A DNA stretch of 64,000 bases, taken from assembly GCA_963663955.1 (NCBI GenBank), contig OY760694.1:2503587-2567586 (forward strand), written 5' to 3'. The notes under the pieces are model-generated. The model did no database searches, was not told the DNA's origin, and worked only from the letters and a program-made list of their open reading frames with translations. Positions 3,813-52,011 of the stretch are shown piece by piece. Every line of letters starts with the position of its first letter. The stretch's first letter is position 1. Source of the stretch: Acidimicrobiia bacterium (GTDB lineage Bacteria > Actinomycetota > Acidimicrobiia > Spongiisociales > Spongiisociaceae). Made by a program: the position numbers and the translations under genes.

Positions 3813-3953
3813 AGTAATACCGGCAGACACCCTAGCCTGAACCCTGTCAGTTCCCAACTCGGCACCCAACCCCCGCGATTCCGTGAAGCCTCAACTATGT
3901 CCCAATTCTGAGTTCAGACAGACCGATACTTCCCTGCCGGGCAACGGTCGTAT

Positions 3954-9753: not shown

Positions 9754-12147
<2,394 letters not shown>

Positions 12148-12241
12148 CAATACCTGTCCATCCGCTACACAAACCGTTTAACGGAAACCGGGATCCGACC
12201 TTCGGTCGGATCCGTAGGCGACTCATACGACTGTGACGAGA

Positions 12242-13570
12242 ATGGTGTGGTCGTTGGGTCGGGTCTGACTCTTGTTACGACCGGCCGCAGAGTGCCTTTG
12301 CGTTGATCTGTCGGCCCGGCTCGGCGGCTTGTCCACACGCAGCTAGCCGTCCGGGAGGGCAGTGACCCAATAGGGGCCTGGGGTTTGAAACCCGACTCGT
12401 CACAGTCTTGTCCGCCCGCCCGGACGGCCGGTCTGCGTTCCACCACAGGGAGGAAACTATGACCAGTATCGTGTCCGATGCTCCGTTCGGGCAAGGTGAT
12501 TGTCGGGGTCGACACTCACAAGCACATCCATGTCGCGGTGGCAATTCAGCCAGCACGGCACCCGTCTGGGTGACCGCGCGGTGAGCGCTGACAGCGGCGG
12601 CTACGCCCAACCGGGTGGCATGGGTCCAGGAACTCGGCCAGCTTGACCGGTTCGGGATCGAGGGCACCGGCAGCTACGGCGCTGGGCTCACCAGTTACCT
12701 GCGACGCTGCGGGCATCGGGTAGTTGAGGTGAACCGGGGTGATCGCCGCTCGCGGCGCAACAGCGGCAAATCAGACGCTATCGACGCTGAAGCCGCCGCA
12801 CGGTCGGTCCTTGCGGGGACCTCGACCGCGGTTCCCAAGACCACGAATGGGCTGGTGGAGATGATCCGCCAACCCAAAGTAGCCAGAGACACCGCCCGCA
12901 AAGGCCGAACCTCGGCGATCATCACCCTTAAGACGCTGATCGTGAACGCCCCGGCCGAGTTGCGCGAGTCCCTCGATGGGCTCACCAATCGGGTCCTCAT
13001 CAACCGTTGCGCCCGCTTCCGAGTGTCGGCAATGGACAGCCCCACAGCCTCGGCCAAGCACTCGCTGAGAGCGTTAGCACGCCGCCGGCGCCACCTCGAC
13101 ACCGAGGTACGCCACCTACGACGCCGTGCTCGACGACGTCGCTACCCAGGCGTCGCCGACACTACGAGACGCCTACGGCATCGGAGCCGACTCCGCGGCC
13201 GAGGCTCCTCATCGTGTTCGGCGACAACCCAGAACGGATCCGCTCAGAGGCCGCCTTCGCGAAACTCTGCGGCACCTGCCCCATCCCAGCGTCGTCAGGG
13301 CAAACCAGCCGGCACCGCCTCTACCGAGGCGGACACCGACAAGCCAACGCGGCGCTCTACCCACTCGCCATCGTACGAATGCGATTCCACCAACCCACCA
13401 TCAACTACGTCGCTCGCCGCACCACCGAAGGCCTCACCAAAAAAGACATCATCCGCTGCCTCAAACGGTTCCTCGCCCGCGAGGTCTACCAGCGAGTCAT
13501 GACCGACCACCGTGCCCGGCAATGCCCTGCCCCCACCCCCTGAACCACAATATTTGACTATAGGGGCATC
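12242..13570 (+). mobile_element. IS110-family element inserted in IS3 OrfB; transposase heavily frameshifted
   Basis: Inserted exactly between the IS3 OrfB codons ...DSYD and NALAES.... No inverted repeats, as expected for IS110. Confidence 0.7.
12478..13543 (+). pseudogene. IS110-family transposase, at least 4 frameshifts
   Basis: MLRSGKVIVGVDTHKHIHVAVAI, then GTRLGDRAVSADSGGYAQ, then VAWVQELGQLDRFGIEGTGSYGAGLTSYLRRCGHRVVEVN...KSDAIDAEAAAR, then LLIVFGDNPERIRSEAAFAKLCGTCPIPASSGQTSRHRLYRGGHRQANAALYPLAIVRMRFHQPT..., each in a different frame. Confidence 0.7.
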
Positions 13571-38886: not shown

Positions 38887-39303
38887 TCAGGAAGGCGGGT
38901 AGAGACCCACGTTGGCCGACTCGTCGGTCTGCCAGAACACGTCGGCAATGGCGTTGATCTGGGCGATCAGATCCTCGGCCACGCCCGGATCGGTCGACTT
39001 CTTGGCGTCTCCCGCAGTCTTGATAGCGTTCCAGAACATGCCGTGCAGCTCGGGGAACCTCTCGAGATGGTGTGGCTTGAAAAAGTCCGTCCACAGGACG
39101 GAAAGGTGATGCTTCACCAACTCCGCCTGTGACTCCTTAACCGAGATGCAGCGCGACCGGAAAACCTCGTCATCACTACCGTGGTACTTCTTGGCTGCCT
39201 GGAGTACCGACTCGGCCTCGATGCGGGCTTGGGCAGGGTCGTACACCCCGCAGAACAGATCGCAGTGGGCGTGAGCCACCTTCAACGGCTTGAGAATCCC
39301 CAT
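38887..39303 (-). CDS. sodN: Nickel-containing superoxide dismutase precursor
   Basis: Leader MGILKPLKVAHA followed by the Ni-hook HCDLFCGVYDPAQA at the mature N-terminus. About 138 aa. Confidence 0.85.
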   Translation of the reverse strand: MGILKPLKVAHAHCDLFCGVYDPAQARIEAESVLQAAKKYHGSDDEVFRSRCISVKESQAELVKHHLSVLWTDFFKPHHLERFPELHGMFWNAIKTAGDAKKSTDPGVAEDLIAQINAIADVFWQTDESANVGLYPPS

Positions 39304-39468
39304 CTATGGTCTCCTTCGGGATTAGCTTCGCGTACCGGGTTCAGAATACACTCACCACCGCCCGCCGCAGACGTCGGTCGACGCCTGTCCTAACATCCGC
39401 ACGGAGCCCACACCATCATCGCTGCATCAGCGCCATTCGCCCGGCCCGGAAAACGCTTCGACCGCTTC

Positions 39469-39873
39469 GTGGTGATTGACCACTCGATGACACCCCTCCT
39501 TGCACCGGGCGACCATCTGATCACCCGTCTGCTAAGACCCGGCTTCCTTCCCCTCCGTGGGAACCTGGTGATATACCGCGACGATGACCGCTACCTGATC
39601 AAACGGGTAATCGGTCTCCCGGGGGAAAGCGTCACGATAGACGGTGGGATACTCTTGATCGACGGCCAGACCTTCTCCGAACCGTGGTGGTCCGCGGCCA
39701 CCCGCCCCGACGGGATCTGGACGATTCCGGCAGACTCCTGGTTCGTGTTGGGCGACAATCGCCCCCACTCCCACTCGGATAGCCGCTCAACCGGCCCGGT
39801 TCGAACCGGCGACCTCCACTCTGTCGCCGTCGCCCGTTACCGTCCGATCAAACGAATCCGTCGCCTCCGGTAA
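39469..39873 (+). CDS. sodX: Ni-SOD maturation peptidase (signal peptidase I / S26 family, SodX)
   Basis: S26 fold motifs RVIGLPGESV, WFVLGDNRPHSHSDSR. Adjacent and divergent to sodN, as is typical. Confidence 0.75.
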   Translation: MVIDHSMTPLLAPGDHLITRLLRPGFLPLRGNLVIYRDDDRYLIKRVIGLPGESVTIDGGILLIDGQTFSEPWWSAATRPDGIWTIPADSWFVLGDNRPHSHSDSRSTGPVRTGDLHSVAVARYRPIKRIRRLR

Positions 39874-39916
39874 GCCCCTGACCCCTCACTCAAACGATCA
39901 TCCACTCTCCCGTAGC

Positions 39917-40420
39917 TTGGGGGAAGCGGCAACCGGCTCCGCCTCACCGTTCGCACCTATCACACACGATCGCTATATTGTTACCGTGACAATTGGCAGA
40001 CAGACTTTCCCCGACTCTGACGACGACGTATTTGCCTTCTCCGACGACGAATGGGATTTGGATAATCCGTTCGGGGATTACGATGGGGATGCGTACCCCC
40101 CAGCCGCGGGGAACCACCTTGGGTCCCTCAGTGGCGGCTTCGTCCCGATACTGCTAGTACTGATCTCGTTCGTCGCCCTGATCGGCGCGGCGGCATTCAC
40201 CGTTCGCGACGTACAGGCCGAACAGGCGGTCTCCGGAAGCGGGTTCGTATCGGCGTTAGGGGCATACATTTTCGCCGCCGCCGCCGACACCGGCAACCGG
40301 CGCAGCAAGGAGATGAGAGAGATTCCCGGCCGCATGGGGTTTGCGGTTTTCTTACGGTGGATCGCGCCCTTAGTCGCCCTCGCGGTGGCCATCCTCGCCG
40401 CCCACGGAGCGGCCCTTTGA
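39917..40420 (+). CDS. Hypothetical membrane protein
   Basis: Two hydrophobic segments (GFVPILLVLISFVALIGAAAF and FAVFLRWIAPLVALAVAIL). Acidic N-terminal region. Start uncertain. Confidence 0.3.
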   Translation: MGEAATGSASPFAPITHDRYIVTVTIGRQTFPDSDDDVFAFSDDEWDLDNPFGDYDGDAYPPAAGNHLGSLSGGFVPILLVLISFVALIGAAAFTVRDVQAEQAVSGSGFVSALGAYIFAAAADTGNRRSKEMREIPGRMGFAVFLRWIAPLVALAVAILAAHGAAL

Positions 40421-40438
40421 GGATCTTCTTCGATAGCA

Positions 40439-40448
40439 GGGGGGGGGG
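40439..40448. repeat. Homopolymeric G10 tract in the intergenic region upstream of the VWA operon
   Basis: GGGGGGGGGG at 40439-40448, 42 nt upstream of the start at 40490. Confidence 0.9.
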
Positions 40449-40489
40449 AAGGCCCTTGGAACGAGTCGGCGCCAACAGGTACCGCGGCC

Positions 40490-43400
40490 ATGAGATTCCG
40501 GCGGCATGCTCTCATCCGGCGGAACAGGGTGGGTTTCCGTAAGCGGGTTTGCTCGCATCGAATACTGACCACGGTCACGCTGTGGCTCGTAATCGCGGCG
40601 GCTACGGTCGCGACGCCCTTGGGGGCCTCGGCCCAGACGTCATCAAGCTCAGACCCTGATATCCCGCAAAGCCCCGACTGCCATCCCAGCCAGACCATAA
40701 GGATCCTATTCCTGCTTGACACCTCGGGGAGCTTGCAATGGAACGATCCGGCGGGTAACCGGATCGAAGGAACCATTCGGGCCGTGTCCGACCTGGTAAC
40801 CCGGGCGATCAACGACGGCCCGGAGCAGCGCCGCAGATACGGCGGATGGTCATTGCAGGTGGCGGTCGACACATTCGCCAACGACTACTACCGATCCGGA
40901 GACTGGCGCCCGCTGGTCGGTACCGATGAGGCTCTGCTCACCGGTACCGACCAAATCAGGGATCTAGCCCGGCAGCTTGAGGACACGATACGAGCGGCGG
41001 AACCGTCCGGCTCCCGGACCGACTACCGCAGAGCCTTGGCCGGCGCCGTCGAACGGTTTCGCGAAGGCGGCGGCGGCTCCTGCAACCTGCTGTTCTGGTT
41101 CACCGACGGGGAACACGACACTCAGGGCCGCGCCAGGCTCAACAGTACCGAGCGCCGCCAGATAGACGACATGTGTCGATCGGACGGGGTGGTAGCGGAC
41201 CTCAGACAGTCCGGAATATGGACCAGTGTGATCGAGTTGACCGAGAACCGCGCCCCAACCGCCGTGCTGCCTCGGCTGGTTGGGACCGGTCAGGAGTGCG
41301 ACGGCCTCAACGGGAGCGTCGTGGGACGTGTCATCCCGGTAGCGTCCGCCTCGCAGCTGGTGGACGACATCGAAAGGATCCTGTACGAGGTCTGGCCTCG
41401 CACACCGATCGAATACCATCCTTGCTCCCCCACGCCGGAGCGTCGGTTCGTTCTCGACGAAGACCTTGAAGAGGTCAGGGTGTTCGTCGACCTTACCAAG
41501 GTCGACGAACCCGACGCTGTGGTGCTAAGCCTTCAACCTCCCGGCGGCCGACCGTTTCCGATCTCGTTTCCCGACACTTGGAGGAGAATCTCGAACACAG
41601 GATTGCTCGGCTGGAAGCCCACCAAGTGGCATCGGGAGATCAGGGCGCATCAGCTTGGCCGGCAGCTGTACGGAACGGTCTGGGGCGCCGATCAGGAGTG
41701 GCGTCTGTTCTGTTCCGGCCCCGGCTACGAACGGGCCGAGATCGCCATAGAGAAACTCGAGATAGAGAAAGCGAGGGTGGTGGAGCTGAACCGGACCGCC
41801 GACAATCTGGTGGGGCAGGTGCAACCACCACCGAAAGAGGGGGAAACGGTCCGCATCTCGGCCCGAATCGGCGGTGTTGGTCCCGGTGCCGGACGTAGCC
41901 TTGATCTCCCCGATGAGGACCTTCGGGTCGAGCGCAACGGCAGGTTCACGATCCCCACCGTCAAGGACCGGGTTGAGGAGGCGCTCGGGGAGACCGGAGA
42001 ATGCCAGGCCGAACTTGAGGTCTCGGTCACCAAGTGGGTGACCTATGGCGAAGAGCGCAGCTTCTGGGACATCCCCGGATCGGAGGCCGTACTCGCCGTG
42101 GACGTCTGTCGGGGCCCTCTGCCGGAAGTCTCGATCGCCCTGATCGATGGACAGCCTTCAGGCCCTCTCGAGGTCACCGCCCGCGGCGGCTATCTCGATT
42201 CCCTCCTTACGATCGCGGGAATCGGCACCGATCCTCCGGTGGAACTCGGTCCATTGGTGTGGCGTTGTGAAGTCCCCGCCAATGTAGACGGTTTCCGCTG
42301 CGACAACCTTGCGGTGGACGTGTCCGACCAGCCCGACATCGGAACGGAAGTGGACTTGGAAGTGACCGTCGAAGCAAGCCCCCAAGGCTTGGACCGGCCA
42401 GAGACCCGGATCCTTCCGGTGGCGGGGCTGCTGGTCAAGGGCAAACTCCCCCACCCCGATCGGGTGATGGTCGGCGGCGCTGGAACCGGTGTGGTCCAGG
42501 TAGGCGCCGACGGTGGCCTGCATGACTCCGAGATGGAGATAACCGCCGTCCGACCTGTGGAAGTAAGCGTGTCGGATGGTCCCTGGCGTTGCTACGTGCC
42601 CGCCAATGAGGTCGAGTATTCCTGCAGTCCAGATGTCGTCCTGACCGCGCCGGGAGCTACGCGGTCGATCAACACCCCCCTGTCGCTCACCATCAGGGCT
42701 CGATCCACGGTCGACGGTTCCGCCGAGTGGGTCAGGGACTTCCCGATCAGCAGCCTCGACATACCGGGTGATCTGCCCCGAGAGTTGACCGTAACTGCTC
42801 TGCCCCGTGACCCGGACGAGCCGATCACGCTGAAGGTAGCGGTCGAACCCGGGGCCCAGGCCGCGGTGGTGTCATCGGAATCGGTCGAACCGGTAGAGGC
42901 CGCCCATCCCGAGAAAGATCCGGTCCGGATCGTCGTATCATCCTGGGAAGGCTGGCGATGTGACATCGAAAGAACCCTTCCGGGTGTCGCCACGAACGTC
43001 ACAGAGTGCGACCAACCGCTCCGCATCGAGTGGGAGGGTTCCCACGACTCGGAGATCGGTCTCAACCTCACCTTCGGGATCCGGGGATCGGCGGACGGGG
43101 AAGTATCTCAGTCGGTCACCGCCACCTCCGGACCGTTCGAGATACGAGTCTGGGAACTCTCGGAGTTCATCGCCGCCCTGATCCGCTACCTGGCCGTGCT
43201 CGTCGTAGCTGTGTTAGCGGTTCGCGTGTTAACGGCTTGGTGGCGTCGGCGATGGGCCCCGGCGTCCTCGGCGCAATACTTCACCCTCCGCGGCGACAGC
43301 GGTACGTCGATCGAGGAGTCGACCGGAAGGTCTCAGATCGAACCGTCAGAGTATGAGATGGCACCCGGCCTCGACTCCAGAGCGTCCTCGGCGAACCTGG

Positions 43401-43825
43401 GCGAGATTCAGCTCCGCATGTTGTGGTGGCCGTTGCTGCTCGGGGGGCGCCGACGGATCGCCGCGTTCTATCCGGACGGCGCCTGCACATCCGGTGCCGG
43501 AAGTAGCAAGCAGCGGCTGGGCGAAGGCAGGTACGGCGTGGTCGGATCCTCTCTACGGGACGGTTGGGCCTTGGGACGGGCATCGGATGACGGATGGACA
43601 TTGGTGGTATGGGATCTCCCTTCCGACCAGGATGAGGCCCAAGCCAGGCTCGACGAGGCGATCAACGAGGCCGCCGCCCGGTGGGACTCCGTTTCTCCCC
43701 GGAAGACACCATCGCCAAGTTCGGCCCAGGATTCCCCCGAAGTTCCCCAACGTGAACCGCCCGGGGAAGAAGGTTCTTCTGACTGGGATTCCGATCTCGA
43801 CGACGATCCCTTCGTAACCAAATGA
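40490..43825 (+). CDS. Exported VWA-domain protein, 1111 aa, single C-terminal-proximal TM anchor and cytoplasmic tail
   Basis: N-terminal signal/TM segment. VWA MIDAS motif IRILFLLDTSGSL ... LLFWFTDGEHD. Three ~115-aa repeats each with W-R-C...C. TM helix FIAALIRYLAVLVVAVLAVRVL. ~200-aa tail ending in an acidic patch. Confidence 0.7.
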   Translation: MRFRRHALIRRNRVGFRKRVCSHRILTTVTLWLVIAAATVATPLGASAQTSSSSDPDIPQSPDCHPSQTIRILFLLDTSGSLQWNDPAGNRIEGTIRAVSDLVTRAINDGPEQRRRYGGWSLQVAVDTFANDYYRSGDWRPLVGTDEALLTGTDQIRDLARQLEDTIRAAEPSGSRTDYRRALAGAVERFREGGGGSCNLLFWFTDGEHDTQGRARLNSTERRQIDDMCRSDGVVADLRQSGIWTSVIELTENRAPTAVLPRLVGTGQECDGLNGSVVGRVIPVASASQLVDDIERILYEVWPRTPIEYHPCSPTPERRFVLDEDLEEVRVFVDLTKVDEPDAVVLSLQPPGGRPFPISFPDTWRRISNTGLLGWKPTKWHREIRAHQLGRQLYGTVWGADQEWRLFCSGPGYERAEIAIEKLEIEKARVVELNRTADNLVGQVQPPPKEGETVRISARIGGVGPGAGRSLDLPDEDLRVERNGRFTIPTVKDRVEEALGETGECQAELEVSVTKWVTYGEERSFWDIPGSEAVLAVDVCRGPLPEVSIALIDGQPSGPLEVTARGGYLDSLLTIAGIGTDPPVELGPLVWRCEVPANVDGFRCDNLAVDVSDQPDIGTEVDLEVTVEASPQGLDRPETRILPVAGLLVKGKLPHPDRVMVGGAGTGVVQVGADGGLHDSEMEITAVRPVEVSVSDGPWRCYVPANEVEYSCSPDVVLTAPGATRSINTPLSLTIRARSTVDGSAEWVRDFPISSLDIPGDLPRELTVTALPRDPDEPITLKVAVEPGAQAAVVSSESVEPVEAAHPEKDPVRIVVSSWEGWRCDIERTLPGVATNVTECDQPLRIEWEGSHDSEIGLNLTFGIRGSADGEVSQSVTATSGPFEIRVWELSEFIAALIRYLAVLVVAVLAVRVLTAWWRRRWAPASSAQYFTLRGDSGTSIEESTGRSQIEPSEYEMAPGLDSRASSANLGEIQLRMLWWPLLLGGRRRIAAFYPDGACTSGAGSSKQRLGEGRYGVVGSSLRDGWALGRASDDGWTLVVWDLPSDQDEAQARLDEAINEAAARWDSVSPRKTPSPSSAQDSPEVPQREPPGEEGSSDWDSDLDDDPFVTK

Positions 43826-43854
43826 GATGAAACCATCGACTAGGAGATGAACAA

Positions 43855-44961
43855 ATGCTGAGACCCGTCATCATGATCGGTTGCGGAGGATCCGGTTCCA
43901 AAGCGGTTCGCTATGTCCGCGACGCGGTGGAGCGCAAGCTGCGTCACGCCGGGGTCAAGGGCGGCATTCCCGATGCGTGGTCATTCATAGGGCTCGACAC
44001 CCTCACCGTGCAGGAGGACGCGACGGAAATACCGACCCTTCCGGCGACGGACTTCCTGTCGGTGTCGCTCGGCCTCAACAAGTACAGCGATGTTCACGAC
44101 GGACTGATGGTCGAACGCCCGGTTACTTCCTCCACCTATCCGAGCCTGGTGGGTTGGCGCCCCAACCCTGGTGACGTGAACGTGCCGCTGCTCGACGGGG
44201 CCGGAAAGTTCCGGGCAGTGGGGCGGTTGGTCGGGCTGCTGGCGTCGACGAACGAACTTCAAAAACGGATAGGCCGCGCCTTCATGGCCGCCAAGTCGGG
44301 GGGGCCGGAACTGGGTCGTATCTCCGAAGCCTTGGGTGTCCCCTCAAGCTTGGGCTCGGCGACGCCCTCCCCGCTCGTGGTGATCTGTGCTTCGGTGGCG
44401 GGGGGCACCGGCGCCGGGATCGCCCTTGATGTGGTGGATATGGTCCGTAGAGTCGACGATCTCGGGGGATTCCCGGTCCTGGTGCTGTTCACCGCCGACA
44501 TCTTCGACTTCGGCGTCGACGACGCCATGGCGGCCAATTCGCTCGGCCTGGTTTCGGAGACCATGGCCTCCTATTGGGGCAAGCAAGGCGACAACTTCTT
44601 TCCGTCGTTGGTTCCCGAGCCGGGGTCCGGCCCGCACGCCCTGTTTTTCGTCGGCCGACACAGCCTCAAAGGTGGCGATCTGGGCGACACCGTGTCGGTG
44701 TATCGGGCGGTGGGCGAAGCGATGTCCACCTGGGTCACCGAGCCGAGGGTGCAGGAACAGATCCACAACTTCATCACCGTCAACTGGGCGAGTCAGGCCA
44801 AGAATCGGATGGGGGGATATCCCTTCGGAGTGGAATATCAACCGGGTGCGGTGTCCTCATTCGGCGCGGCCACCGTCTCGATGGGGCGTGACCGCTTCGA
44901 GCGCTGGGCCACCGATCTGCTGTCCCCACGAGACCCTCCGACGACTCGCCGGCGGGCATAA
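43855..44961 (+). CDS. Divergent FtsZ/tubulin-superfamily GTPase domain protein (FtsZl-1-like); probably the N-terminal part of a larger protein
   Basis: T1 loop VIMIGCGGSGSKAV (cf. FtsZ IKVIGVGGGGGNAV). T4 signature LVVICASVAGGTGAGIALDVVDMV (cf. FtsZ ITAGMGGGTGTGAAPVIAE). The frame ends 3' of a C4 run at 44924-44927, where the next ORF continues. Confidence 0.65.
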   Translation: MLRPVIMIGCGGSGSKAVRYVRDAVERKLRHAGVKGGIPDAWSFIGLDTLTVQEDATEIPTLPATDFLSVSLGLNKYSDVHDGLMVERPVTSSTYPSLVGWRPNPGDVNVPLLDGAGKFRAVGRLVGLLASTNELQKRIGRAFMAAKSGGPELGRISEALGVPSSLGSATPSPLVVICASVAGGTGAGIALDVVDMVRRVDDLGGFPVLVLFTADIFDFGVDDAMAANSLGLVSETMASYWGKQGDNFFPSLVPEPGSGPHALFFVGRHSLKGGDLGDTVSVYRAVGEAMSTWVTEPRVQEQIHNFITVNWASQAKNRMGGYPFGVEYQPGAVSSFGAATVSMGRDRFERWATDLLSPRDPPTTRRRA

Positions 44962-47050
44962 CCGGTACAAGGCGACGGTAGGAGACGATGTCGATCTGGC
45001 CGAACCGGAATTGATCGAAGTACTGGCCGAGCAGCGGGCCGACAGTATCTACGAAGGTCTCCGGACCGCGCCCGACCACTTCGCGTCGGATCGCGATGGC
45101 AAGGACGAGAGAACCACAATCCTCGCCGAACTCAAGAGACCGTTCTCCGGTCACGCCGTTTCCGGGACCGACTGGTACCGCAGGCTGAAACGCCAGGTCC
45201 GGACCATGAGCAAGGAAAGGAAGAAACGTGCCGAGAACATCGATGTTCCCTCGTGGGGCGCCGAAATGGTACGGGCGATTTGCTCCGCCTCGTCCGAGGT
45301 AGCGGCGGATACCTCTTTGGAAGTTGCCCGGAATGCGATCCTGCTGGCCCGGGAGAAGGCCGAGCAACAGGCGGAGGTTTTGCGACAGAAAGCCGCCCAG
45401 GACCGGGATCCGGCGAAGAAATACCAGCAGAAAGGGCTCAACGACCTGACGGGCCGCAAAGGCAAACTGCGCCTTGACGATGCTCCGGTAACCGACGCTT
45501 TCAAGACGGTGGCTAGCGGCTTGACTTTTGAATGGCGCAGTGTACGCCGCGAGCGGACGGCCGAGGTATTGGAGGCAGCAGCCCGGGAAGTGCTACCGAC
45601 CGCGGCCCGTGCGCTCGGTGCGGCGGCGTCCCAGGCGAACGGCGCCCTCAAAGAGGACGAGGTAACGACTTGGCCGACGATCGGCTCCGGCATACCGAAG
45701 GACTACCTTCCCGCCACCGTGGAGTTTCCGCTTGAAGATCACAACGCTTGGCCGGACCAACTCAAACAACTTTGCAAGGAGGCGGTTCGCCGTGATGCGA
45801 GCGCTACCCGTCCGGTGGACGCGGTCCGTCGGGTTCTGGTAGGCGGAGACAGGGACGGAACTCTCCCGCCGCTGCTGAACCCCTCCGATCCTCAGGCTTC
45901 ATGGGCGCCCGGGGTGTCGCTTCGCCTGTCGTGCGACGCCCGCTCCGGGGCAATCAAGAAGCGTGTGGACGAGTGGACCGGCAGTCCGGGATCGCCGTTC
46001 TCCGACTTCTTTCGGGAAGGCCTGAGGGCCTACCTGTCGGAGAATAACCCGGACACCGATGAGCAACAGGTGGACCATGTGGACCGAATCAAGTCCTTCC
46101 GGCATAGCCTTGAGCAAGCGCTGGTCCGCTCCCAACCGCTGGTTCAGATCAACCCGGGTCTCCATCGGGTGGTCCACCAAAGCGATGTGGCAGTCGACCG
46201 GCTGTGCGCCGCCTTCCCCTTCCAGGAAGGACATCCCGCCGCCGAAGTGGCCCGTGAGGTCGTTGGAAAGGACAACTATCGGGTAACCGACACCGACACT
46301 TCTTCCGTGCTGGTCTCTCACTACATGAGTTCGCCGGTTCACCCGATGGTCGTCAAGTCCTTTACCGAGCCGGTATCCCGATCTGTAGCGAGTTTCGGCG
46401 CCGACGAGGGCCGATTTCGATCGTCTTTCTGGCTGTTTCGTCGGGCGAGAACCTTGCCGGGTTTCACGCCCATGGCCCCCGACATGCTCAAAGCCATGAT
46501 TCGAGGGTTTGCAGTCGGCCGGCTGTGTGGCTATCTGAACCTTGGCCCGTCGCGGCCGAGGATCAGTTCGCCGGAAGGCCCGGTAACCTTCCCCGGTCCG
46601 ATGCTGTCCTCGGTAGAGCAGGACGACATGCTCGCGGCCTTGATCGAGAACTTCTCCCTCTGCTATGCGCTGGTAGACGCCCAAAAGCTGCTGTGTTTCA
46701 AGGCCTACGAGCTCCTGTACGAACTCGGTGAGCACAGGAACCCTGTGCACGACGATCTCCGCCGCCTCCTCGCTACCGGGAACACCCTCCGCCATACTGT
46801 CGATGAGCCGAAATGCCGAGGCACCGATCCCGAAGCCCGCGAGAAGACCGCCGTCCTTTACCTGGACCTCAACATCAAACGTTTTGACAGGCTGGCGTCC
46901 GCAGATACGTTCACGGGCGAGGAATACCGGCATGAGACCGGACACGCCAACCCGAACGTTCCGAGCATGGAAATCGCCGCGATTGCCGCGGAATGCCATC
47001 AGGAGGTCCGCCAAGCCGTAGAGGAAGTGAGCGCCGGAGGGGTGGCATGA
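44942..47050 (+). CDS. Large helical protein, probably continuous with the tubulin-like domain via a frameshift (combined ~1060 aa)
   Basis: No ATG/GTG/TTG start in frame near 44940-45000. Protein-like sequence begins ...HETLRRLAGGHNRYKATVGDDVDLAEPELIEVLAEQ. Long charged, helical, coiled-coil-like stretches. Stop overlaps the next start (ATGA at 47047). Confidence 0.45.
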   Translation, partial: RLAGGHNRYKATVGDDVDLAEPELIEVLAEQRADSIYEGLRTAPDHFASDRDGKDERTTILAELKRPFSGHAVSGTDWYRRLKRQVRTMSKERKKRAENIDVPSWGAEMVRAICSASSEVAADTSLEVARNAILLAREKAEQQAEVLRQKAAQDRDPAKKYQQKGLNDLTGRKGKLRLDDAPVTDAFKTVASGLTFEWRSVRRERTAEVLEAAAREVLPTAARALGAAASQANGALKEDEVTTWPTIGSGIPKDYLPATVEFPLEDHNAWPDQLKQLCKEAVRRDASATRPVDAVRRVLVGGDRDGTLPPLLNPSDPQASWAPGVSLRLSCDARSGAIKKRVDEWTGSPGSPFSDFFREGLRAYLSENNPDTDEQQVDHVDRIKSFRHSLEQALVRSQPLVQINPGLHRVVHQSDVAVDRLCAAFPFQEGHPAAEVAREVVGKDNYRVTDTDTSSVLVSHYMSSPVHPMVVKSFTEPVSRSVASFGADEGRFRSSFWLFRRARTLPGFTPMAPDMLKAMIRGFAVGRLCGYLNLGPSRPRISSPEGPVTFPGPMLSSVEQDDMLAALIENFSLCYALVDAQKLLCFKAYELLYELGEHRNPVHDDLRRLLATGNTLRHTVDEPKCRGTDPEAREKTAVLYLDLNIKRFDRLASADTFTGEEYRHETGHANPNVPSMEIAAIAAECHQEVRQAVEEVSAGGVA

Positions 47051-49662
47051 GCGAGTCGCTGACGGTCTGCGTGGTTCCCGAGGACTATCGAGCCGAAGCT
47101 TCCGACCTATTCACCTCTTGGACCCAAGCAGGGTTGATTGGAGGCGTCGTCCTGTGCTCGCAGAGCGACCCCGAGGCCGATTGTCACTTCTCCGACGACC
47201 TGGAATGGAAATCGGGGAGGCTGTGGAAGGTGCTTGGGCGAGCTACTTACGAAGCGGTGACGGTCGCCGTGCTACGCCCCGACGGTCCCTCCGACAACGA
47301 GGAGAAGGTGGATTGGGAGCACCGACTCGCCGAGGATCTCAGCAAACCGTTCGAGGGAAGCAAGGTGAGGCTTCGGCGAATCACTGTAGGCGTCGCCAAC
47401 CCGGAGATGCCGACCGGGGACCGCGCATTCTCTCCACAATGGGATGCTCACCTGCTCCACGACCTGAGCATGGTCGGCCATGTCGAGGCTGTCCGTTCGC
47501 CGGTCGGCGCCGAGGACCGCGCCGGTGTATGTATGGTGACCGCTCTCCTGGCGGGTGGCGGATGGGCGTTCACCAACCAGGTATGGAAGGTGTCGGACCG
47601 ACCGGTGGGGAACACCAAACCCTTCCGCATTGTGCGGCCACAGATCAGGATTCTCTACGGCGGGGATCCCCGGATCCGGGTCGCCGCCGGAACTATACCC
47701 ATCACCCCGCCTTGGCCCCGTCCCAAAGGCACCGAGACCATCCGGGTAGGTCCGGACATCGAAGTTCCCCGTGACCTGGGAATATCGCTCGCCTCTCGGT
47801 GCGAGTTCCGCTTGCGACAGGCGAGGACCGGAGTCGAGCCGGAAGTGTCGTTTACCGGCAAGATGCGCACAGCGGTTCGGATACTCGGCAAACCCCTCAC
47901 GTCGCCGCGGCCGCCCGATCCGGTCGAACGGGCCCTGGATCGTCTCAACGCCATGGATGCCGGCCTATCCGGACACCCTCGGCAAGCGGAATCCCCCACC
48001 GAGGACCGCGCCATGCTTCTGAAACGAATCAGAAGATCGGGGATGCCCGACCTCGCGCTGGGCAGAGTAGGAGACCCCGAGCCGTGGCGACGGATGCGTC
48101 GTGTGCTGTACGGCTTGGTGGACGCATCTGTGCCCGGGGAGGATGTTCGCATGCCTTATCACCCGCAGGGGGCTGATCCGAGCCTGCTGCCGGTGTGGTC
48201 GGATCCCCACATGATCGCGCCTCCGCCCGATGCCGAGGCGTTCGATCTCGACGGAGACTTGCCGGACGAACTCGGGACCGATCGAATTGAAGCGATCGAC
48301 GTCGCCAACTGCCGGACCGCTCATCACCGCATCACCGGCGGCGATTCCAACTCACCCGCATCGGACACGGAGGAACGACAGGACGACGGAGAAATGGCGG
48401 ATCGGTGGCTTTCGTGGCGGGAACGGTGGAGATGGACGCCGTTGTGGACCCTTGCCGACCGGCTCGCGGGATCTCTCGAGGGCGCCCACAGGGCCTTCGC
48501 GCAATATTCGCAGCGGGCCCGTTCGGATTCCGAGCACCGGGCCGCGGTCCACGCCCGCCGCAAACTCCGTCGAACCGGGTGGACGTTGACAATAGCGGCG
48601 CTGCTGGCCGGACTGGCGGTCGCGGAACGTCATACCGGCTTGGCAGGCGATTGGTTGCAGTTCGTGATCGGCCCTCCGGCCGGGTCGTACTTCGACATTA
48701 TTGCCTACGCGGCCCTCGGCGCCTTTGGTGTAGGTGTCATGGGCTCGCTAGCCCGCCGAGTGGTGGTCGCGACCCTCGCCTTCGAGAAGGCGGAACGATC
48801 ACGTGAAAGCCACAGCAACGCTGCCCGCCACTACGCCTCCGAACTGGCGCGCTTGCACACCGCGGCGGCGGAGTTCCACGATCACCAGAAGGTGATCCGC
48901 ACCATGCTCCACAAGCCGTTCGGCCCCCTGACCGAGAGCCCGGATGTGGGACCCCAACGCCGGTTGATCCCCGAACATTGCGTCCCGGCTTCGATAGTCA
49001 TCGCCACCAGCGAGGCCGATCCCGCCAAGCTGGCGGATGTCCGAAAGGAAATAGCGCAGGGCGTAATCAACCGTGGATGGCTGCTCGATGCCCACTCCAA
49101 GGCGTTAGCGCTCTGGCGACCCTCATTCGAGCGGCAGGTGACCACCGACTTCGATCCGCCCGATGCGGACAACAGCCCACCGGACGCCGAGTTTCTCCAT
49201 GATCCCGCCGGGGGCGGCGCCGTGCCCTTTCCGAGACAGCACTTCACCGACACGGTGGCCGCCGACAGCGCTCTGCGCCGCGCCCTTCGGATAGAGTTCC
49301 CGCTCTCCGTGACCGAGGAAGGGTTCGACGCCCTTCGAATTCTCGGCCTGGTACAGGTGGAACACGGTCCGCAGATGCCGGATACATCAGCCGAAGAGTT
49401 TCTCCGGATAGACGAGCCGGGGGACCAAGACTGGTTCAGCCAGGAGATACTGGACAAGGCGGCCGGACTGAAGCGCCGCCACACCAGGCTGGAAGGTCCG
49501 GAAAAGCTGATAGAACTCCCCGACGGGGAGGAGCGCGACGAGATGATCATGGCCAACTGGCTGATCCCCATGTCTGATCCGATCGAGCCCCGCCATCTGG
49601 CCGGTTGGCGCTCGGTAACCGATGCGGCGATTGTCAGCCAGGGGAGTTCCCAATATGCGTAG
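47047..49662 (+). CDS. Large membrane-associated protein (hypothetical, ~870 aa)
   Basis: Start MSESLTV overlaps the upstream stop. Central pair of TM helices (WTLTIAALLAGLAVA and YFDIIAYAALGAFGVGVMGSLA). No known catalytic motif. Confidence 0.45.
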   Translation: MSESLTVCVVPEDYRAEASDLFTSWTQAGLIGGVVLCSQSDPEADCHFSDDLEWKSGRLWKVLGRATYEAVTVAVLRPDGPSDNEEKVDWEHRLAEDLSKPFEGSKVRLRRITVGVANPEMPTGDRAFSPQWDAHLLHDLSMVGHVEAVRSPVGAEDRAGVCMVTALLAGGGWAFTNQVWKVSDRPVGNTKPFRIVRPQIRILYGGDPRIRVAAGTIPITPPWPRPKGTETIRVGPDIEVPRDLGISLASRCEFRLRQARTGVEPEVSFTGKMRTAVRILGKPLTSPRPPDPVERALDRLNAMDAGLSGHPRQAESPTEDRAMLLKRIRRSGMPDLALGRVGDPEPWRRMRRVLYGLVDASVPGEDVRMPYHPQGADPSLLPVWSDPHMIAPPPDAEAFDLDGDLPDELGTDRIEAIDVANCRTAHHRITGGDSNSPASDTEERQDDGEMADRWLSWRERWRWTPLWTLADRLAGSLEGAHRAFAQYSQRARSDSEHRAAVHARRKLRRTGWTLTIAALLAGLAVAERHTGLAGDWLQFVIGPPAGSYFDIIAYAALGAFGVGVMGSLARRVVVATLAFEKAERSRESHSNAARHYASELARLHTAAAEFHDHQKVIRTMLHKPFGPLTESPDVGPQRRLIPEHCVPASIVIATSEADPAKLADVRKEIAQGVINRGWLLDAHSKALALWRPSFERQVTTDFDPPDADNSPPDAEFLHDPAGGGAVPFPRQHFTDTVAADSALRRALRIEFPLSVTEEGFDALRILGLVQVEHGPQMPDTSAEEFLRIDEPGDQDWFSQEILDKAAGLKRRHTRLEGPEKLIELPDGEERDEMIMANWLIPMSDPIEPRHLAGWRSVTDAAIVSQGSSQYA

Positions 49663-50608
49663 GAGTCCCGGCCCGGTCGGATCCCGACGGATTTGGCCCG
49701 CGGTTGTGGCTGTGTTGATCTGTGCAGCGACCCCGGTTACCGCCCAACCACTATCACAACCCGACGACCTCTTGGATCGCGGCTACGGCCTCTGGGTGTC
49801 GGTTGTCGTCAACGTGGATGGCGCCTCCGGCGGTCACGCCGAGTTCGTGGCTACACGCGAAGCAGTGACGGCCATAGCCGACCATTTCGATGTCTCCCGA
49901 GCAGAAGCCTGCCGACGCATCGTCTATCCCGATTCGGAGTCGGAGAGACCATACTTCCTTAACCCACGCCTGTGGACTGAACGTACCTCGCACCAGGGGG
50001 TAGATCAATGCCGCTACACCTTCGGATATCCCGAAGGAACCGACCTCTCCTCCTTCTCTATTACCTCGACGGGGCGGATCCGCTATTCCGAGCGGTTTGA
50101 CTCTCCGAACCGGAGCACCCTGTTCGAATCGGAGCAGACAGCGGGCACGGTCTGGGATGAGGAGGTTGTCGAGTTGTTGATCAGTGAGTACGGGCTCCCT
50201 AGGCAGGGACCCTTGGAGGTGGTAAGGATTAGGTTTCCACATCGGCCCGACGGCCCCGAGTCACGCAACGCCGAGTATGCCGTGGGTAACGATCTAATCT
50301 GGCATTACAGCCCTCTCGGTACGATCATCGTAGACTCCTTGGAAGGTTCCGCCACCCCGACCACGACCGCGCCGACCACCTCAATAACCCCTACTACCAC
50401 TACAACCATACCGACAACCACAACCACAACCACCCGCCCGCTGTCTACGACCACTACCACAACACCGGTCGCTGAAGAACCGCCGCCCGAGCCGGAACCG
50501 TTTCCGTGGCTGTTGCTGCTCCTAGCCATGCTGGGCGGCTTCGCATCCGGCTGGATAGTGGGAGAAACAACATCGAAGCGCAAAGCAGAACGTGCTTCGG
50601 AGGGTTAG
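49655..50608 (+). CDS. Secreted protein with Thr/Pro-rich linker and C-terminal TM anchor (hypothetical)
   Basis: Signal peptide MRRSPGPVGSRRIWPAVVAVLICAATPVTAQP. Linker PTTTAPTTSITPTTTTTIPTTTTTTTRPLSTTTTTTP. C-terminal anchor PWLLLLLAMLGGFASGWIV. Confidence 0.45.
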   Translation: MRRSPGPVGSRRIWPAVVAVLICAATPVTAQPLSQPDDLLDRGYGLWVSVVVNVDGASGGHAEFVATREAVTAIADHFDVSRAEACRRIVYPDSESERPYFLNPRLWTERTSHQGVDQCRYTFGYPEGTDLSSFSITSTGRIRYSERFDSPNRSTLFESEQTAGTVWDEEVVELLISEYGLPRQGPLEVVRIRFPHRPDGPESRNAEYAVGNDLIWHYSPLGTIIVDSLEGSATPTTTAPTTSITPTTTTTIPTTTTTTTRPLSTTTTTTPVAEEPPPEPEPFPWLLLLLAMLGGFASGWIVGETTSKRKAERASEG

Positions 50609-50793
50609 GTCGAGAACGCATCTCCTGAATCCCGCCTGTCCGACCCATCGGTGCAAACCGAACTGCACACGGGTTCTCGGATGAATGTCAACGGATCCGT
50701 CGGCTTCTGTAGCCGCTAATCGGGCGATTCGGCGGCCTTACACCTATTAGGGTCGTTGCATTCGGACCATGTTTTCTGAGACACTTCACCTAT

Positions 50794-52011
50794 ATGTCTA
50801 TGTCGCGCAAATCCCTAGCCATCCTGACTATCTGGCTTCTCATGGCCGTTGCCTGTGGAAGCGAAGATACCGTCCCGTCTTCGACCGGCACTCCGAGCGA
50901 AGAGGGAACGGTCACGACCACAGCACCCGCCACCACCGGTGCGGGAACCAGCCCGGAACCGGATCCGGAAACCAGCACGTCGGCGGCGGATGATCCGAAC
51001 ACGGAAACGTCGGACCCGGAGCCGAACCAAACCGAGACACCCGTCTCCGAAACCACTGTCGTTGACCAGCCACCACCGCCGGACGACGCTCCGACCACCA
51101 CCATCTACTCGGGCCCGGTTTCGCCGATCACCGGCCTCCCGGTCCAGGACCCGGAGCTCCTCAACCGGAATGTTCTCGCAGTCAAAGTAGACAACCATCC
51201 GGCCGCCCGACCGCAATCGGGGATCGAGCAAGCCGAGGCCGTCTACGAGGTGATGGTCGAAGGGGGACTAACCAGGTTCATCGCATTGTTCCACCATTCA
51301 GACTCGGACTGGGTAGGACCGATGCGCTCGGCTCGACCCACCGACTGGACGCTGCTACAACCACTCAGCGGGGTCATGCTGATCAGCGGCGCCCAGCCGT
51401 GGATCACCCGACGGATAACCAACAACAACGTGCCTCTGATCGGGGACTCCGGCCCTCCGCTAACCGCCAGATGGGGACAGCGCGTAGCGCCGCACAACCT
51501 GTACGTCGACACCTACCAGGGCCGACGGGTGGTGGACGAACGCGGTATCGACCGGCCTCCGCCTCCGGCGCTATTCAAGCGAGGTCCCCTTAACAGTCCC
51601 GAAGGTGCGACCGCCGGCTACATCTTCTTCGATTGGTCATCCGTGGTGGACGTGTCATGGCTCTGGAACGGCGAGCGATACGTCAGGCTGGCCGCCGAAG
51701 AACCCCACGAGTGGCGGTCCCGTGAAGGTGAGCAGACCGACCAGATATCAGCGGATGTACTGGTAGTCCTGATGGCCGAGGGCTACACGGCTTGCCCTCA
51801 GGGGGAAGGTTCCTGCGTGCCGGCTTGGGACACGGTGGGCGAGAACCGAGCCATCGTGTTCGCGGAAGGAAGCTACGTCGAGGGTAACTGGCGCCGCGAC
51901 CGGGCCGCTGACTGGTTCGTGATCACCGACCAATCCGGTGAAGAGATCACCGTACCTGCCGGGAGACCCTGGATAATTATCTACCCCGATACGGAAGACG
52001 TGACCTGGTAA
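50794..52011 (+). CDS. DUF3048 (YerB-like) lipoprotein
   Basis: Lipobox LLMAVACGS. Thr/Pro/Glu-rich linker. LAVKVDNHPAARPQSGIEQAEAVYEVMVEGGLTRFIALFH resembles the YerB/DUF3048 core. Confidence 0.55.
   Translation: MSMSRKSLAILTIWLLMAVACGSEDTVPSSTGTPSEEGTVTTTAPATTGAGTSPEPDPETSTSAADDPNTETSDPEPNQTETPVSETTVVDQPPPPDDAPTTTIYSGPVSPITGLPVQDPELLNRNVLAVKVDNHPAARPQSGIEQAEAVYEVMVEGGLTRFIALFHHSDSDWVGPMRSARPTDWTLLQPLSGVMLISGAQPWITRRITNNNVPLIGDSGPPLTARWGQRVAPHNLYVDTYQGRRVVDERGIDRPPPPALFKRGPLNSPEGATAGYIFFDWSSVVDVSWLWNGERYVRLAAEEPHEWRSREGEQTDQISADVLVVLMAEGYTACPQGEGSCVPAWDTVGENRAIVFAEGSYVEGNWRRDRAADWFVITDQSGEEITVPAGRPWIIIYPDTEDVTW

Follow-up and report, generated by a model that had tools for sequence, protein, structure and literature searches.

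A Reduced, Chromosomal FtsZl1-vWA Operon of Five Genes in an Uncultured Acidimicrobiia Bacterium

RESULTS

Why does a gene for a very divergent FtsZ/tubulin-like GTPase stand next to one for a very large exported vWA protein in an uncultured Acidimicrobiia bacterium, and what could the products do together? We addressed this question in a window of 64,000 nucleotides (GenBank assembly GCA_963663955.1, contig OY760694.1). The locus is a reduced, chromosomal FtsZl1-vWA operon of five plus-strand genes, g0 (39986-40420), g1 (40490-43825), g2 (43855-47050), g3 (47047-49662), and g4 (49655-50608); all features given below lie on the plus strand. An operon of this kind has already been described, never with experimental study, and the present locus adds a member rather than a new system. 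The long co-directional open reading frames reported in an earlier note on this DNA were recovered at 40490-43825 (1111 aa), 43855-44961 (368 aa), 47047-49662 (871 aa), and 49655-50608 (317 aa). Its gene count was wrong, because a frameshift divides one gene and a conserved upstream gene, g0, had been overlooked; the locus should thus begin near 39950.

The genes are tightly spaced. The g1-g2 gap, given earlier as 30 nt, is 29 nt long and carries an AGGAGA Shine-Dalgarno sequence before the ATG at 43855. Of the two stop/start overlaps proposed earlier, the ATGA at 47047-47050 was confirmed, whereas g3 and g4 overlap by 8 nt (ATGCGTAG) and not by an ATGA. The 69-nt g0-g1 spacer contains a G9 homopolymer (40438-40446). 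In a promoter consensus scan over 39200-51200, the sole plus-strand site was TTCGCA-18 nt-TATATT (39950-39979), just 5' of the GTG start of g0. This site is a possible start of the operon; since the site count did not exceed the shuffle expectation, the evidence is weak.

The order g1-g2-g3 is kept in all 26 Acidimicrobiia genome loci with room for it, and g0 lies before g1 in almost every relative, so that the neighborhood check proposed earlier showed conservation of g0-g3 in Acidimicrobiia, with g4 being lineage-specific. The chromosomal context of g0-g4 is identical in a sister genome, against which dN/dS was 0.15-0.48 for all genes. Many names of the related metagenome-assembled genomes point to sponge hosts.

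The product of g2 belongs to the FtsZl1 family. Its GTPase domain (43870-44904, aa 6-350) matched Pfam Tubulin_2 (PF13809) with an E-value of 4.8e-31 and 108.7 bits (cut-off 27), covering positions 1-344 of 356. This score and the published operon of the same type bear out the statement in the earlier note that FtsZl1 genes lie beside vWA genes (Makarova and Koonin, 2010). The T1 loop GCGGSGSK (aa 9-16) and the T4 loop AGGTGAG (aa 182-188) were as claimed, with a spacing of ∼174 aa in the alignment (∼175 aa in the earlier estimate), and a T3-like element, GAGKFRAVGR, was also present. A Foldseek search of PDB with a model of g2 returned FtsZ, TubZ, or gamma-tubulin as all of the top 50 matches, with E-values of 7.5e-3 or worse; the sequence profile matched FtsZ among PDB sequences at an E-value of 0.004 over S4-T4-H5. 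The AF2 model had a mean pLDDT of 58.9 and showed long helices at aa 380-600 (pLDDT 80-94), in agreement with the published FtsZl1 layout of an FtsZ-like domain, a coiled-coil, and a helical domain. With hhalign, the g2 family profile matched Rhodococcus FtsZl1 with a probability of 100% over 966 columns (identity 28%). The T6-H7-T7 elements that are needed for FtsZ-type filaments are unidentifiable in FtsZl1 (Makarova and Koonin, 2010), and our literature search found no experimental study of any FtsZl1-family member.

The gene g1 encodes a single-pass membrane protein of 1111 aa, in which the signal peptide, vWA/MIDAS domain, three WRC repeats, single transmembrane helix, and acidic tail noted earlier were all seen by sequence inspection, hydropathy, and Pfam (VWA_2, E-value 2.7e-4). 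The vWA core (40703-41113, aa 72-208) carries the MIDAS residues D77-x-S79-x-S81, T177, and D206, all five of which are kept in at least 90% of 24 g1 orthologues; because this motif and the ectodomain cysteines are conserved, g1 appears to be exported. The WRC motifs (aa 591, 699, and 822) lie on poorly conserved, beta-rich ectodomain repeats. A hydropathy scan placed the transmembrane helix at 43166-43222 (aa 893-911), and the sequence RVLTAWWRRRW that follows it indicates, by the positive-inside rule, that the C-terminal part is cytoplasmic. This part contains an aligned domain (43232-43624, ∼aa 915-1045) with a mean identity of 0.31-0.36 versus 0.11-0.20 in the ectodomain repeats; its counterpart in Kaur et al. 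(2020) is the “uncharacterized beta-strand-rich domain.” The family profile matched the Rhodococcus vWA protein with a probability of 99.4% (hhalign, E-value 2e-21).

Beyond the cytoplasmic domain, an acidic linker and tail (19 Asp/Glu among the final 71 aa) lead to a C-terminal Asp-Pro-Phe (DPF) peptide (43805-43813, aa 1106-1108). DPF occurs within the final 15 aa in 20 of the 24 g1 orthologues, although the linkers cannot be aligned, and the remaining four have DPL, NPF, or DRF in its place. The Rhodococcus vWA protein ends in ..SFDPFGG..SDPFDPFRGGSNR.

Similar peptides were found on g0, a protein of ∼144 aa with an acidic cytoplasmic N-terminal tail followed by three transmembrane helices. 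An independent annotation also calls this gene, and blastp clustered 25 such upstream open reading frames, directly 5' of g1 in ∼22 related loci. The g0 tail carries the DPF-like motifs DDDVFAF and DNPFGDYD; 12 of 22 g0 tails have a [D/E/N]PF motif, and DPF was not found in g0 of the most divergent clade. Rhodococcus has a 148-aa open reading frame of g0-like position and design, starting MTSPSDPFASDPFAA; in a profile comparison with g0, it gave a probability of only 19.7%. The conserved DPF on the g1 tail and the similar g0 peptide are a new detail for this operon. Because these peptides recur in g1 and g0 at the frequencies given above and in both Rhodococcus counterparts, we infer that they may dock cytoplasmic partners.

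The 871-aa product of g3 has large cytoplasmic N- and C-terminal regions around a transmembrane hairpin (48568-48753, ∼aa 508-569) that is bordered on each side by Arg/Lys-rich sequence. Hydropathy agreed with the earlier placement of a central hairpin (helices at ∼511-527 and 551-569). A gene for g3 was found in every related locus with room for it; its homologues fall into 152 representative clusters among 1.84 billion. Searches of Pfam, NCBIfam, PADLOC, and PDB gave no match, and the structure model (pLDDT 38) was unusable. The g3 profile matched the gene that follows FtsZl1 in Rhodococcus, “B3,” with a probability of 98.4% (hhalign, E-value 4e-15, 753 columns). The partner set is thus not new, since the vWA and tubulin-like proteins were described by Kaur et al. 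(2020). The last gene, g4, encodes an exported protein of 317 aa whose signal peptide, globular part, Thr/Pro-rich linker, and C-terminal transmembrane anchor (aa 285-303) fit its earlier description as a secreted, Thr/Pro-rich, anchored protein. Homologues were found in locus L004 and the sister genome only, and in other clades its place is taken by two unrelated lipoprotein-like genes; g4 is a lineage-specific accessory gene.

The earlier note had treated the 368-aa reading frame and a “∼700-aa helical protein” as two proteins, but they are halves of one gene, through which every intact orthologue reads. A 1-nt insertion in a CCCC run (44923-44926), a +1 frameshift, splits what was ancestrally a single 1064-aa frame (43855-44925 plus 44927-47050) into frames of 368 and ∼680-707 aa. 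The 97% identical sister genome lacks the extra C and encodes an intact FtsZl1 protein of 1064 aa (P0178), whose junction ..DLLSHETLRRL.. is the exact product of deleting one C from the run. Since g2 is interrupted, the system may be inactive in the present strain.

It is possible, if on the unlikely side, that the frameshift is real, FtsZl1 non-functional, and the operon an idle, decaying remnant in this genome. The 4.14-Mb genome record shows the extra C, and so does a contig in the separate Logan assembly of run ERR3887494, but the two assemblies may stem from the same reads. For the downstream half of g2, neither a start codon nor a ribosome-binding site is convincing, and no orthologue has the frameshift site, so that the shift is not a programmed one. 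On the other hand, 707 codons past the shift are free of stop codons, dN/dS after the shift versus the intact sister allele (0.48) is near that of the upstream part (0.35) and of neighbor genes, and the other operon genes are all intact. The lack of stops and the similar dN/dS point to a very recent change or to a homopolymer error; either the insertion inactivated g2 only a short time ago or the consensus sequence is wrong.

DISCUSSION

Judging from the sequence features of its members, we narrowly favor the reading in which all five proteins assemble into one complex on the cytoplasmic membrane, with ligand binding by g1, docking through DPF peptides, and FtsZl1 assembly as output. The MIDAS site of g1 would bind an extracellular ligand in a metal-dependent manner; the g1 cytoplasmic domain, the DPF peptide, and the g0 N-terminal tail would recruit FtsZl1 and/or B3 to the membrane, and GTP-dependent self-assembly of FtsZl1 at the recruitment site would be the output of the system. 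A physical trans-envelope complex, as the earlier note suggested, is still an inference. The predicted topology holds, in that signal peptides, transmembrane helices, and positive-inside flanks agree on an extracellular vWA domain and on cytoplasmic tubulin-like and hairpin-anchored proteins. Candidate roles are envelope or membrane remodeling and surveillance against invaders.

Kaur et al. (2020) re-interpreted the FtsZl1 operon as a DO-GTPase/GAP1 conflict system. If this applied here, the fast-evolving g1 repeats would sense a phage or other invader at the cell surface, and FtsZl1 assembly would be a thresholded, possibly suicidal effector. In Rhodococcus, Pfam finds a GAP1-N2/GAP1-M protein and a DO-GTPase2 after vWA-FtsZl1-B3, as published; neither the window nor any of the Acidimicrobiia loci has these defining elements. 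Conservation within the operon is lowest in the g1 repeats, the terminal exported genes vary among clades, and three distant homologues of B3 have peptidase domains. The genomic location is non-syntenic across clades, Rhodococcus megaplasmids carry copies, one genome (L025) has two, and several loci, including the present one, have interrupted genes. Nevertheless, PADLOC gave no match to the locus, the neighbors are housekeeping rather than defense genes, viral contigs yielded no relative (neutral at best), and the conflict role is itself a purely computational prediction. We consider this explanation unlikely.

A housekeeping-type machine for membrane remodeling or vesicle formation, in which B3 and the vWA protein would anchor FtsZl1 filaments that bend or constrict the cytoplasmic membrane (Makarova and Koonin, 2010), seems improbable to us. 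Every partner is membrane-anchored, B3 joins a transmembrane hairpin to large cytoplasmic domains, and characterized FtsZ/tubulin relatives form filaments (Makarova and Koonin, 2010), but the filament-forming elements are those that cannot be identified in this family. Similarly, the purifying selection on the operon and its vertical conservation across an Acidimicrobiia clade are set against a patchy family distribution and against the interruption of g2 in this and a few other assemblies, which, if real, means that the gene is dispensable.

That g2 is a cell-division FtsZ, or a plasmid or phage DNA-segregation tubulin of the TubZ/PhuZ type, is highly improbable: its sole support is the shared GTPase fold, against which stand a PF00091 score of 16.6 bits (cut-off 33), no FtsZ_C domain found, no C-terminal FtsZ peptide, no dcw genes seen in the annotated part of the window (in line with the earlier note), no TubR-like partner, the chromosomal context shared with the sister genome, no viral relatives found, and the usual presence of a canonical FtsZ in genomes with FtsZl1 (Makarova and Koonin, 2010).

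The closest known counterpart of the locus is the FtsZl1-vWA operon of Actinobacteria, for which Makarova and Koonin (2010; Biol Direct 5:33) proposed a membrane-remodeling role, with C. glutamicum cgR_2621-2628, R. opacus ROP_13750-13810, and Xylanimonas Xcel_1377-1380 as examples. Both have the same gene order, “B2,” vWA (COG2304), FtsZl1 (∼1100-1200 aa), and “B3” (∼870-930 aa), with profile homology for vWA, FtsZl1, and B3, an intact MIDAS in the present locus, and the same FtsZl1 layout (FtsZ-like, helical/coiled-coil, and helical C-terminal domains); the likeness of g0 to B2 is one of position and design, given the 19.7% profile probability. Unlike that operon, the present locus lacks B4, B5, B6, and the GTPase, ends in a lineage-specific exported protein, and has a frameshifted rather than intact FtsZl1. 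The supplements of the 2010 study do not list the Acidimicrobiia clade (“Acidimicrobium” is absent among the taxa searched).

The GAP1-N2-type DO-GTPase systems (Kaur, Burroughs, Iyer, and Aravind, 2020; eLife 9:e52696) likewise have a single tubulin fused to an uncharacterized alpha-helical C-terminal domain, along with a vWA/beta-rich membrane protein like g1, and near-membrane action is predicted for them as for the present locus; here the DO-GTPase, GAP1, and HRDC-FNIII proteins are absent, leaving the tubulin module alone.

FtsZ and its anchors (FtsA, ZipA, and SepF) offer an analogy only: both cases have a tubulin-fold GTPase whose likely tether is a short acidic Pro/Phe peptide on a disordered linker, but the peptide is on FtsZ itself and, in the present operon, on membrane proteins, and this operon lacks a dcw context and recognizable T6-H7-T7 elements. 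FtsZ C-terminal peptides, e.g. DIPAFLR, bind membrane anchors. Finally, integrin beta subunits, likewise just an analogy, differ in having an actin-based rather than a tubulin-like partner, and we claim no homology except for the vWA fold; common to both are a vWA-fold MIDAS ectodomain, stalk repeats, a single transmembrane helix, a short Pro-aromatic motif in the cytoplasmic tail, and, as proposed here, a cytoskeletal link.

Organization of the operon and its gene model

The genes described here occupy 39.9–50.6 kb of the window's + strand as co-directional long open reading frames (ORFs) with a high third-position GC content (0.71–0.74). An earlier note, made from the sequence alone, had outlined these ORFs, and its coordinates agreed with those that we found. 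Its gene inventory was incomplete, as a conserved gene upstream of the vWA gene, g0 (39986–40420), had been overlooked, and two ORFs that it had described as separate genes, a 368-aa tubulin-like protein and a "helical protein," proved to be halves of a single gene, g2 (43855–47050). The short gap between g1 (40490–43825) and g2 was present and measures 29 nt, with AGGAGA inside. Of the two ATGA overlaps proposed, that between g2 and g3 (47047–49662) was borne out at 47047–47050; the other, placed at 49655 between g3 and g4 (49655–50608), is an 8-nt overlap (ATGCGTAG).

The N-terminal ORF of g2 (43855–44961, + strand, 368 aa) is followed in the +1 frame by the ORF of the other half. Joining 43855–44925 to 44927–47050 yielded a 1064-aa protein that aligned without a break across the junction with metagenomic homologues, and 22 of 26 related genomes have the g2 homologue as one uninterrupted ORF of 1069–1119 aa. 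At the junction, orthologues read CTG CTG GCC CGC GAG and the window reads CTG CTG TCC CCA CGA; the break in the reading frame is thus due to one additional base within the C run of the window (44923–44926). A cluster look-up returned an intact 1064-aa protein, P0178, encoded on a 4.02-Mb circular contig with ∼97% identity to the window and full synteny. This sister genome (ENA ERZ25069711, ctg17310_46x_c, 842875–866069, corresponding to window positions 33969–57026) carries an intact FtsZl1 gene in the same operon, and the P0178 junction, ..DLLSHETLRRLAGGH.., is identical to our reconstruction of g2.

The extra C was also found in the Logan assembly of ERR3887494, which matches the window at 100% identity over 21.4 kb; both assemblies possibly stem from the same reads. 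Downstream of the shift 707 codons remain open, and dN/dS against the intact sister allele was 0.48 after the shift and 0.35 before it, compared with 0.06–0.47 in neighboring genes. Because the downstream codons are open and dN/dS resembles that of the neighbors, the extra C is either a very recent change or an error. Programmed frameshifting was rejected, since the site is not conserved and the sister genome sequence is uninterrupted, and a pseudogene reading would apply only to this strain. The other interrupted copies break elsewhere, two of them on long-read contigs of 2–3x coverage. For annotation purposes, the deposited 368-aa and 679-aa products of the window genome are best handled as one frameshifted gene; P0178 is the sequence suited to expression and can serve as the reference allele.

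g2 belongs to the FtsZl1 family

Pfam Tubulin_2 (PF13809), which represents the FtsZl1 family (Makarova & Koonin 2010, Biol Direct 5:33), matched g2 with 108.7 bits (cut-off 27, E 4.8e-31) over profile positions 1–344 of 356, and the Pfam search found no further domain in g2, with neither FtsZ_C nor Tubulin_C among the matches. That family is recognized by a T1 loop GGxG and a T4 loop GGTG[S/A]G with family-specific inserts in between. The T1 and T4 loops that had been noticed in g2 are present ∼174 aa apart (GCGGSGSK, aa 9–16; AGGTGAG, aa 182–188), and when the GTP-binding loops were aligned (alignment A5) both were invariant; a counterpart of T7, and of T6-H7-T7 as a whole, was not assignable in A5, and T6-H7-T7 is likewise not identifiable in FtsZl1 (Makarova & Koonin 2010).

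When the reconstructed g2 was modeled with AF2 from an alignment, the result was of moderate quality (mean pLDDT 58.9), with long helices at aa 380–600 (pLDDT 80–94) and a helical C-terminal part of low confidence. Foldseek matches of the model in the PDB agreed with the tubulin/FtsZ fold that had been anticipated: the top 50 (E 7.5e-3 to 7.6e-2) comprised FtsZ, TubZ and gamma-tubulin only, with a probability of 1.0 for 49 of the 50 and 0.98 for gamma-tubulin, and with TM-scores on the target of 0.24–0.47, mostly ∼0.4. The sequence profile of g2 matched FtsZ in the PDB at E 0.004 over S4-T4-H4-S5-T5-H5; the same search with the C-terminal region gave only coiled-coil or low-complexity noise. 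Model and profile agree on a predicted tubulin/FtsZ GTPase fold, and as modeled g2 has the FtsZl1 layout: the N-domain is FtsZ-like, an extended helical or coiled-coil stretch follows, and the C-domain is alpha-helical. Our literature search found no experimental characterization of FtsZl1 or Tubulin_2.

A housekeeping FtsZ was rejected on the basis of the PF00091 match, which is weak and lies around T4 (16.6 bits, cut-off 33), the missing FtsZ_C and the lack of dcw genes in the annotated parts of the window. A TubZ/PhuZ segregation tubulin, which is recognized by a plasmid or phage location and TubR/centromere partners, was likewise rejected, since the gene lies in a chromosomal context that shows synteny with the sister genome. 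Domain, context and partner tests at this locus effectively excluded both division FtsZ and TubZ-type segregation. No relatives were found in the viral contigs searched, and the plasmid matches were the Rhodococcus FtsZl1 operons themselves.

Partner proteins

The product of g0 (+ strand, ∼144 aa) has an acidic N-terminal tail followed by three TM helices, and in ∼22 related loci the ORF that immediately precedes g1 groups with g0 in a single blastp cluster. The strongly basic TM2-TM3 loop places the N-terminal tail, by prediction, in the cytoplasm. g1 has all the features reported for it, from the signal peptide and the MIDAS-bearing vWA domain through three WRC motifs to a single TM helix and the acidic tail. 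Its predicted topology is that of an exported protein with conserved cysteines, a conserved MIDAS and one membrane crossing, and the cytoplasmic part consists of a basic juxtamembrane stretch, a conserved domain at ∼aa 915–1045 and an acidic linker variable in length and composition. The ectodomain repeats are poorly conserved (identity 0.11–0.20), and Pfam gave no confirmation of an FNIII nature. No TM segment was found in g2.

The central TM hairpin noticed in g3 is present, and both large domains of the protein are predicted to be cytoplasmic because basic residues flank the hairpin on both sides. The g4 protein is exported, as had been proposed, with a Thr/Pro-rich linker, and is predicted to lie outside the cell, anchored via its C-terminal helix. 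Searches of Pfam, NCBIfam and PADLOC found no family for g3 or g4; weak MmpB and Keratin matches were judged to be noise. The AF2 model of g3 (pLDDT 37.9) was left out of the fold search, and its profile against the PDB gave coiled-coil or low-complexity noise alone. Only 152 representative clusters among 1.84 billion belong to the small g3 family, which is nearly uniform in length (850–1100 aa). The g3 orthologue of one locus (L020, 13357–17901) has 1514 aa, ∼600 aa above all other loci, with only a weak DUF4271 match. Three distant homologues (P0167, P0157 and P0166) carry C-terminal peptidase domains, two of them Trypsin_2 (E 5e-28 and 5e-14) and one a weak matrixin match; in some lineages, such fusions could point to an effector function.

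Distribution and genomic surroundings

A GTDB-wide pattern scan with a narrow alignment, the reach of which is the Acidimicrobiia clade, yielded 26 loci, the majority of them under the names Acidimicrobiia, Acidimicrobiales, Ca. Aldehydirespirator or Ca. Poriferisocius and a few under different or generic bin labels; sponge hosts are suggested by several of the bin and genus names. The conserved neighborhood expected of these genes held for g1-g2-g3, the order of which is kept in all loci with enough sequence, but not for the gene after g3, which varies. Among the loci compared, g4 occurs only in the window, the sister genome and L004. In approximately ten other loci it is replaced by two unrelated lipoprotein-like genes, families d1 and d2, which encode conserved small exported proteins with no Pfam match (L001, 16212–17869; similar in L009–L012, L021, L023 and L027–L029). 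Flanking genes are not common to different clades. The clade offers a stripped-down system of a four-gene core plus one variable gene. One Acidimicrobiaceae MAG (L025) has two FtsZl1 genes ∼3.5 kb apart (3217–6448 and 10001–13303), the upstream copy being frameshifted in appearance.

Immediately upstream of the operon lie two divergent genes, for a nickel superoxide dismutase (SOD; 38887–39303, − strand) and an S26-type peptidase (39469–39873, + strand), the latter presumed to be the SOD maturation protease. The 69-nt spacer between g0 and g1 contains a G9 homopolymer (40438–40446) that could be prone to slippage and so affect expression. Farther upstream, at 24574–26949 (+ strand), is a gene for a 791-aa S41 (tail-specific) peptidase with a PDZ and a C-terminal SLH domain, an arrangement that suggests cell-wall-polymer anchoring in this Acidimicrobiia lineage. 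Two transposase genes, at 10740–12140 (+ strand; HTH_38 and rve) and 14457–16013 (− strand; DDE_Tnp_1 and DUF772), are no more than 5 kb apart and precede the operon by ∼25 kb.

Homology with the actinobacterial FtsZl1-vWA operon

In the supplementary tables of Makarova & Koonin (2010), actinobacterial operons are listed in the order (B2)-vWA-FtsZl1-B3-B4-B5-B6-GTPase, together with shorter forms, for example vWA-FtsZl1-1027 aa in Xylanimonas. We compared family alignments from the Acidimicrobiia loci by hhalign with an operon of Rhodococcus sp. JS3073 (plasmid NZ_CP113952, 412436–441545), a complete seven- to eight-gene FtsZl1 operon on a 1.39-Mb megaplasmid that is unannotated in the record. 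g1 matched the Rhodococcus vWA protein (probability 99.4%, E 2e-21) over query columns 47–413, which cover the vWA domain and the adjacent region; g2 matched FtsZl1 (probability 100%, E 2e-46) over 966 columns; and g3 matched the gene after FtsZl1, the B3 position (probability 98.4%, E 4e-15), over 753 columns. Together with the Tubulin_2 match, these results confirmed the earlier recognition of the locus as FtsZl1 plus vWA.

Both operons have a vWA gene with an intact MIDAS beside FtsZl1 and B3 directly after it, the B3 label being inferred from gene order and size. No match of g3 was obtained by tblastn against plasmids; its homology to Rhodococcus B3 is visible at the profile level only. 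g0 is a candidate B2: gene position, length, the number of TM helices (three) and the DPF motifs of the N-terminal tail agree, but the profile probability was only 19.7%. For B4, B5, B6 and the diverged GTPase, which belong to the full Corynebacterineae-type operon, neither tblastn nor hhalign gave a match in the window or at any Acidimicrobiia locus, and the annotated neighbors are unrelated. Assignment of g4 as B6 was rejected, as hhalign showed no relation to B3, B4, B5, B6, the vWA protein or the GTPase of Rhodococcus.

DPF motifs and a possible link across the membrane

Asp-Pro-Phe is present at the very C terminus of g1 in 20 of the 24 orthologues, although the linker before it is unalignable; the remaining four have DPL, NPF or DRF instead. 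In 12 of 22 g0 proteins, [D/E/N]PF occurs in the cytoplasmic N-terminal tail. The same motifs are found in Rhodococcus, the FtsZl1 of which is 28% identical to g2: the small protein begins MTSPSDPFASDPFAA, and the vWA protein ends ..SFDPFGG..SDPFDPFRGGSNR. The term DPF is absent from the text of Makarova & Koonin (2010) and is not mentioned in the available passages of Kaur et al. (2020, eLife 9:e52696).

We infer that the DPF peptides of g1 and g0 may dock FtsZl1, B3 or both to the membrane proteins. Metal-dependent ligand binding by g1 outside the cell would then be coupled to a tubulin-like, GTP-dependent assembly on the cytoplasmic side of the membrane, with FtsZl1 polymerization and GTP hydrolysis both putative. 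FtsZ's own C-terminal peptide binds its anchors. By analogy, the arrangement here would be a mirror image, with the docking peptides on the membrane proteins and not on the tubulin-like protein. Peptides on both membrane-protein tails offer a concrete and cheap hypothesis for linking the cytoplasmic and extracellular parts.

A bolder proposal, which we consider improbable, is that B2-vWA-FtsZl1-B3 forms a self-sufficient, integrin-like "outside-in" device in which conserved cytoplasmic DPF peptides physically connect an extracellular MIDAS receptor with a tubulin-like polymer tethered to the membrane. In that case, the operon of the Acidimicrobiia would be the minimal form, and the DO-GTPase/GAP1 genes of other Actinobacteria would be add-on regulators and not part of the core. 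If true, this would be a first case of a surface receptor in bacteria that connects directly to a cytoskeletal element of the tubulin family.

The membrane-remodeling role suggested in 2010 draws on the topology of membrane-linked partners described above and on filament formation as a general habit of the family.

Relation to DO-GTPase/GAP1 systems

In the Rhodococcus operon, Pfam identified B5 as a GAP1-N2/GAP1-M protein and the GTPase as DO-GTPase2 (PF20013, PF20014 and PF19993), families defined in Kaur et al. (2020). According to the available passages of that paper, approximately half of these systems center on tubulin genes, and those of Actinobacteria combine a single tubulin fused to an uncharacterized alpha-helical C-domain with a membrane-bound protein that has FNIII repeats, a vWA domain and one more domain, uncharacterized and rich in beta-strands. 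g2 and g1 fit this description of the GAP1-N2-type systems, as far as those passages go. The core pair of DO-GTPase and GAP1, both present in the Rhodococcus operon, was absent from the window in Pfam, annotation and homology searches.

The same passages predict a role in biological conflict. Such a role is consistent with the link of the operon to DO-GTPase/GAP1 systems in other Actinobacteria, the poorly conserved g1 repeats, the variable terminal genes, the peptidase fusions in a few B3 homologues and the varying genomic locations. However, the defining core is missing, the neighbors are housekeeping genes, and PADLOC-DB v2 gave no defense match at E 0.01 or better with five sequences (g1, both halves of g2, g3 and g4).

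The partner set had been put forward as one not known to be characterized; its novelty was not upheld, as this operon type was already described computationally in 2010 and 2020, and the locus is a further example of it and not a new system. The present analysis adds a gene model in which one split gene has been rejoined and one missed gene included, a clade of Acidimicrobiia whose operon is minimal and DO-GTPase-free, the connection of g3 to B3, the conserved DPF tail motifs and an intact sister allele. Because the defining DO-GTPase and GAP1 pair is missing, the Acidimicrobiia operon is a tubulin-vWA-B3 module standing alone and not a member of the DO-GTPase/GAP1 systems. The module therefore exists without the pair that the available passages of Kaur et al. 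(2020) treat as the core.
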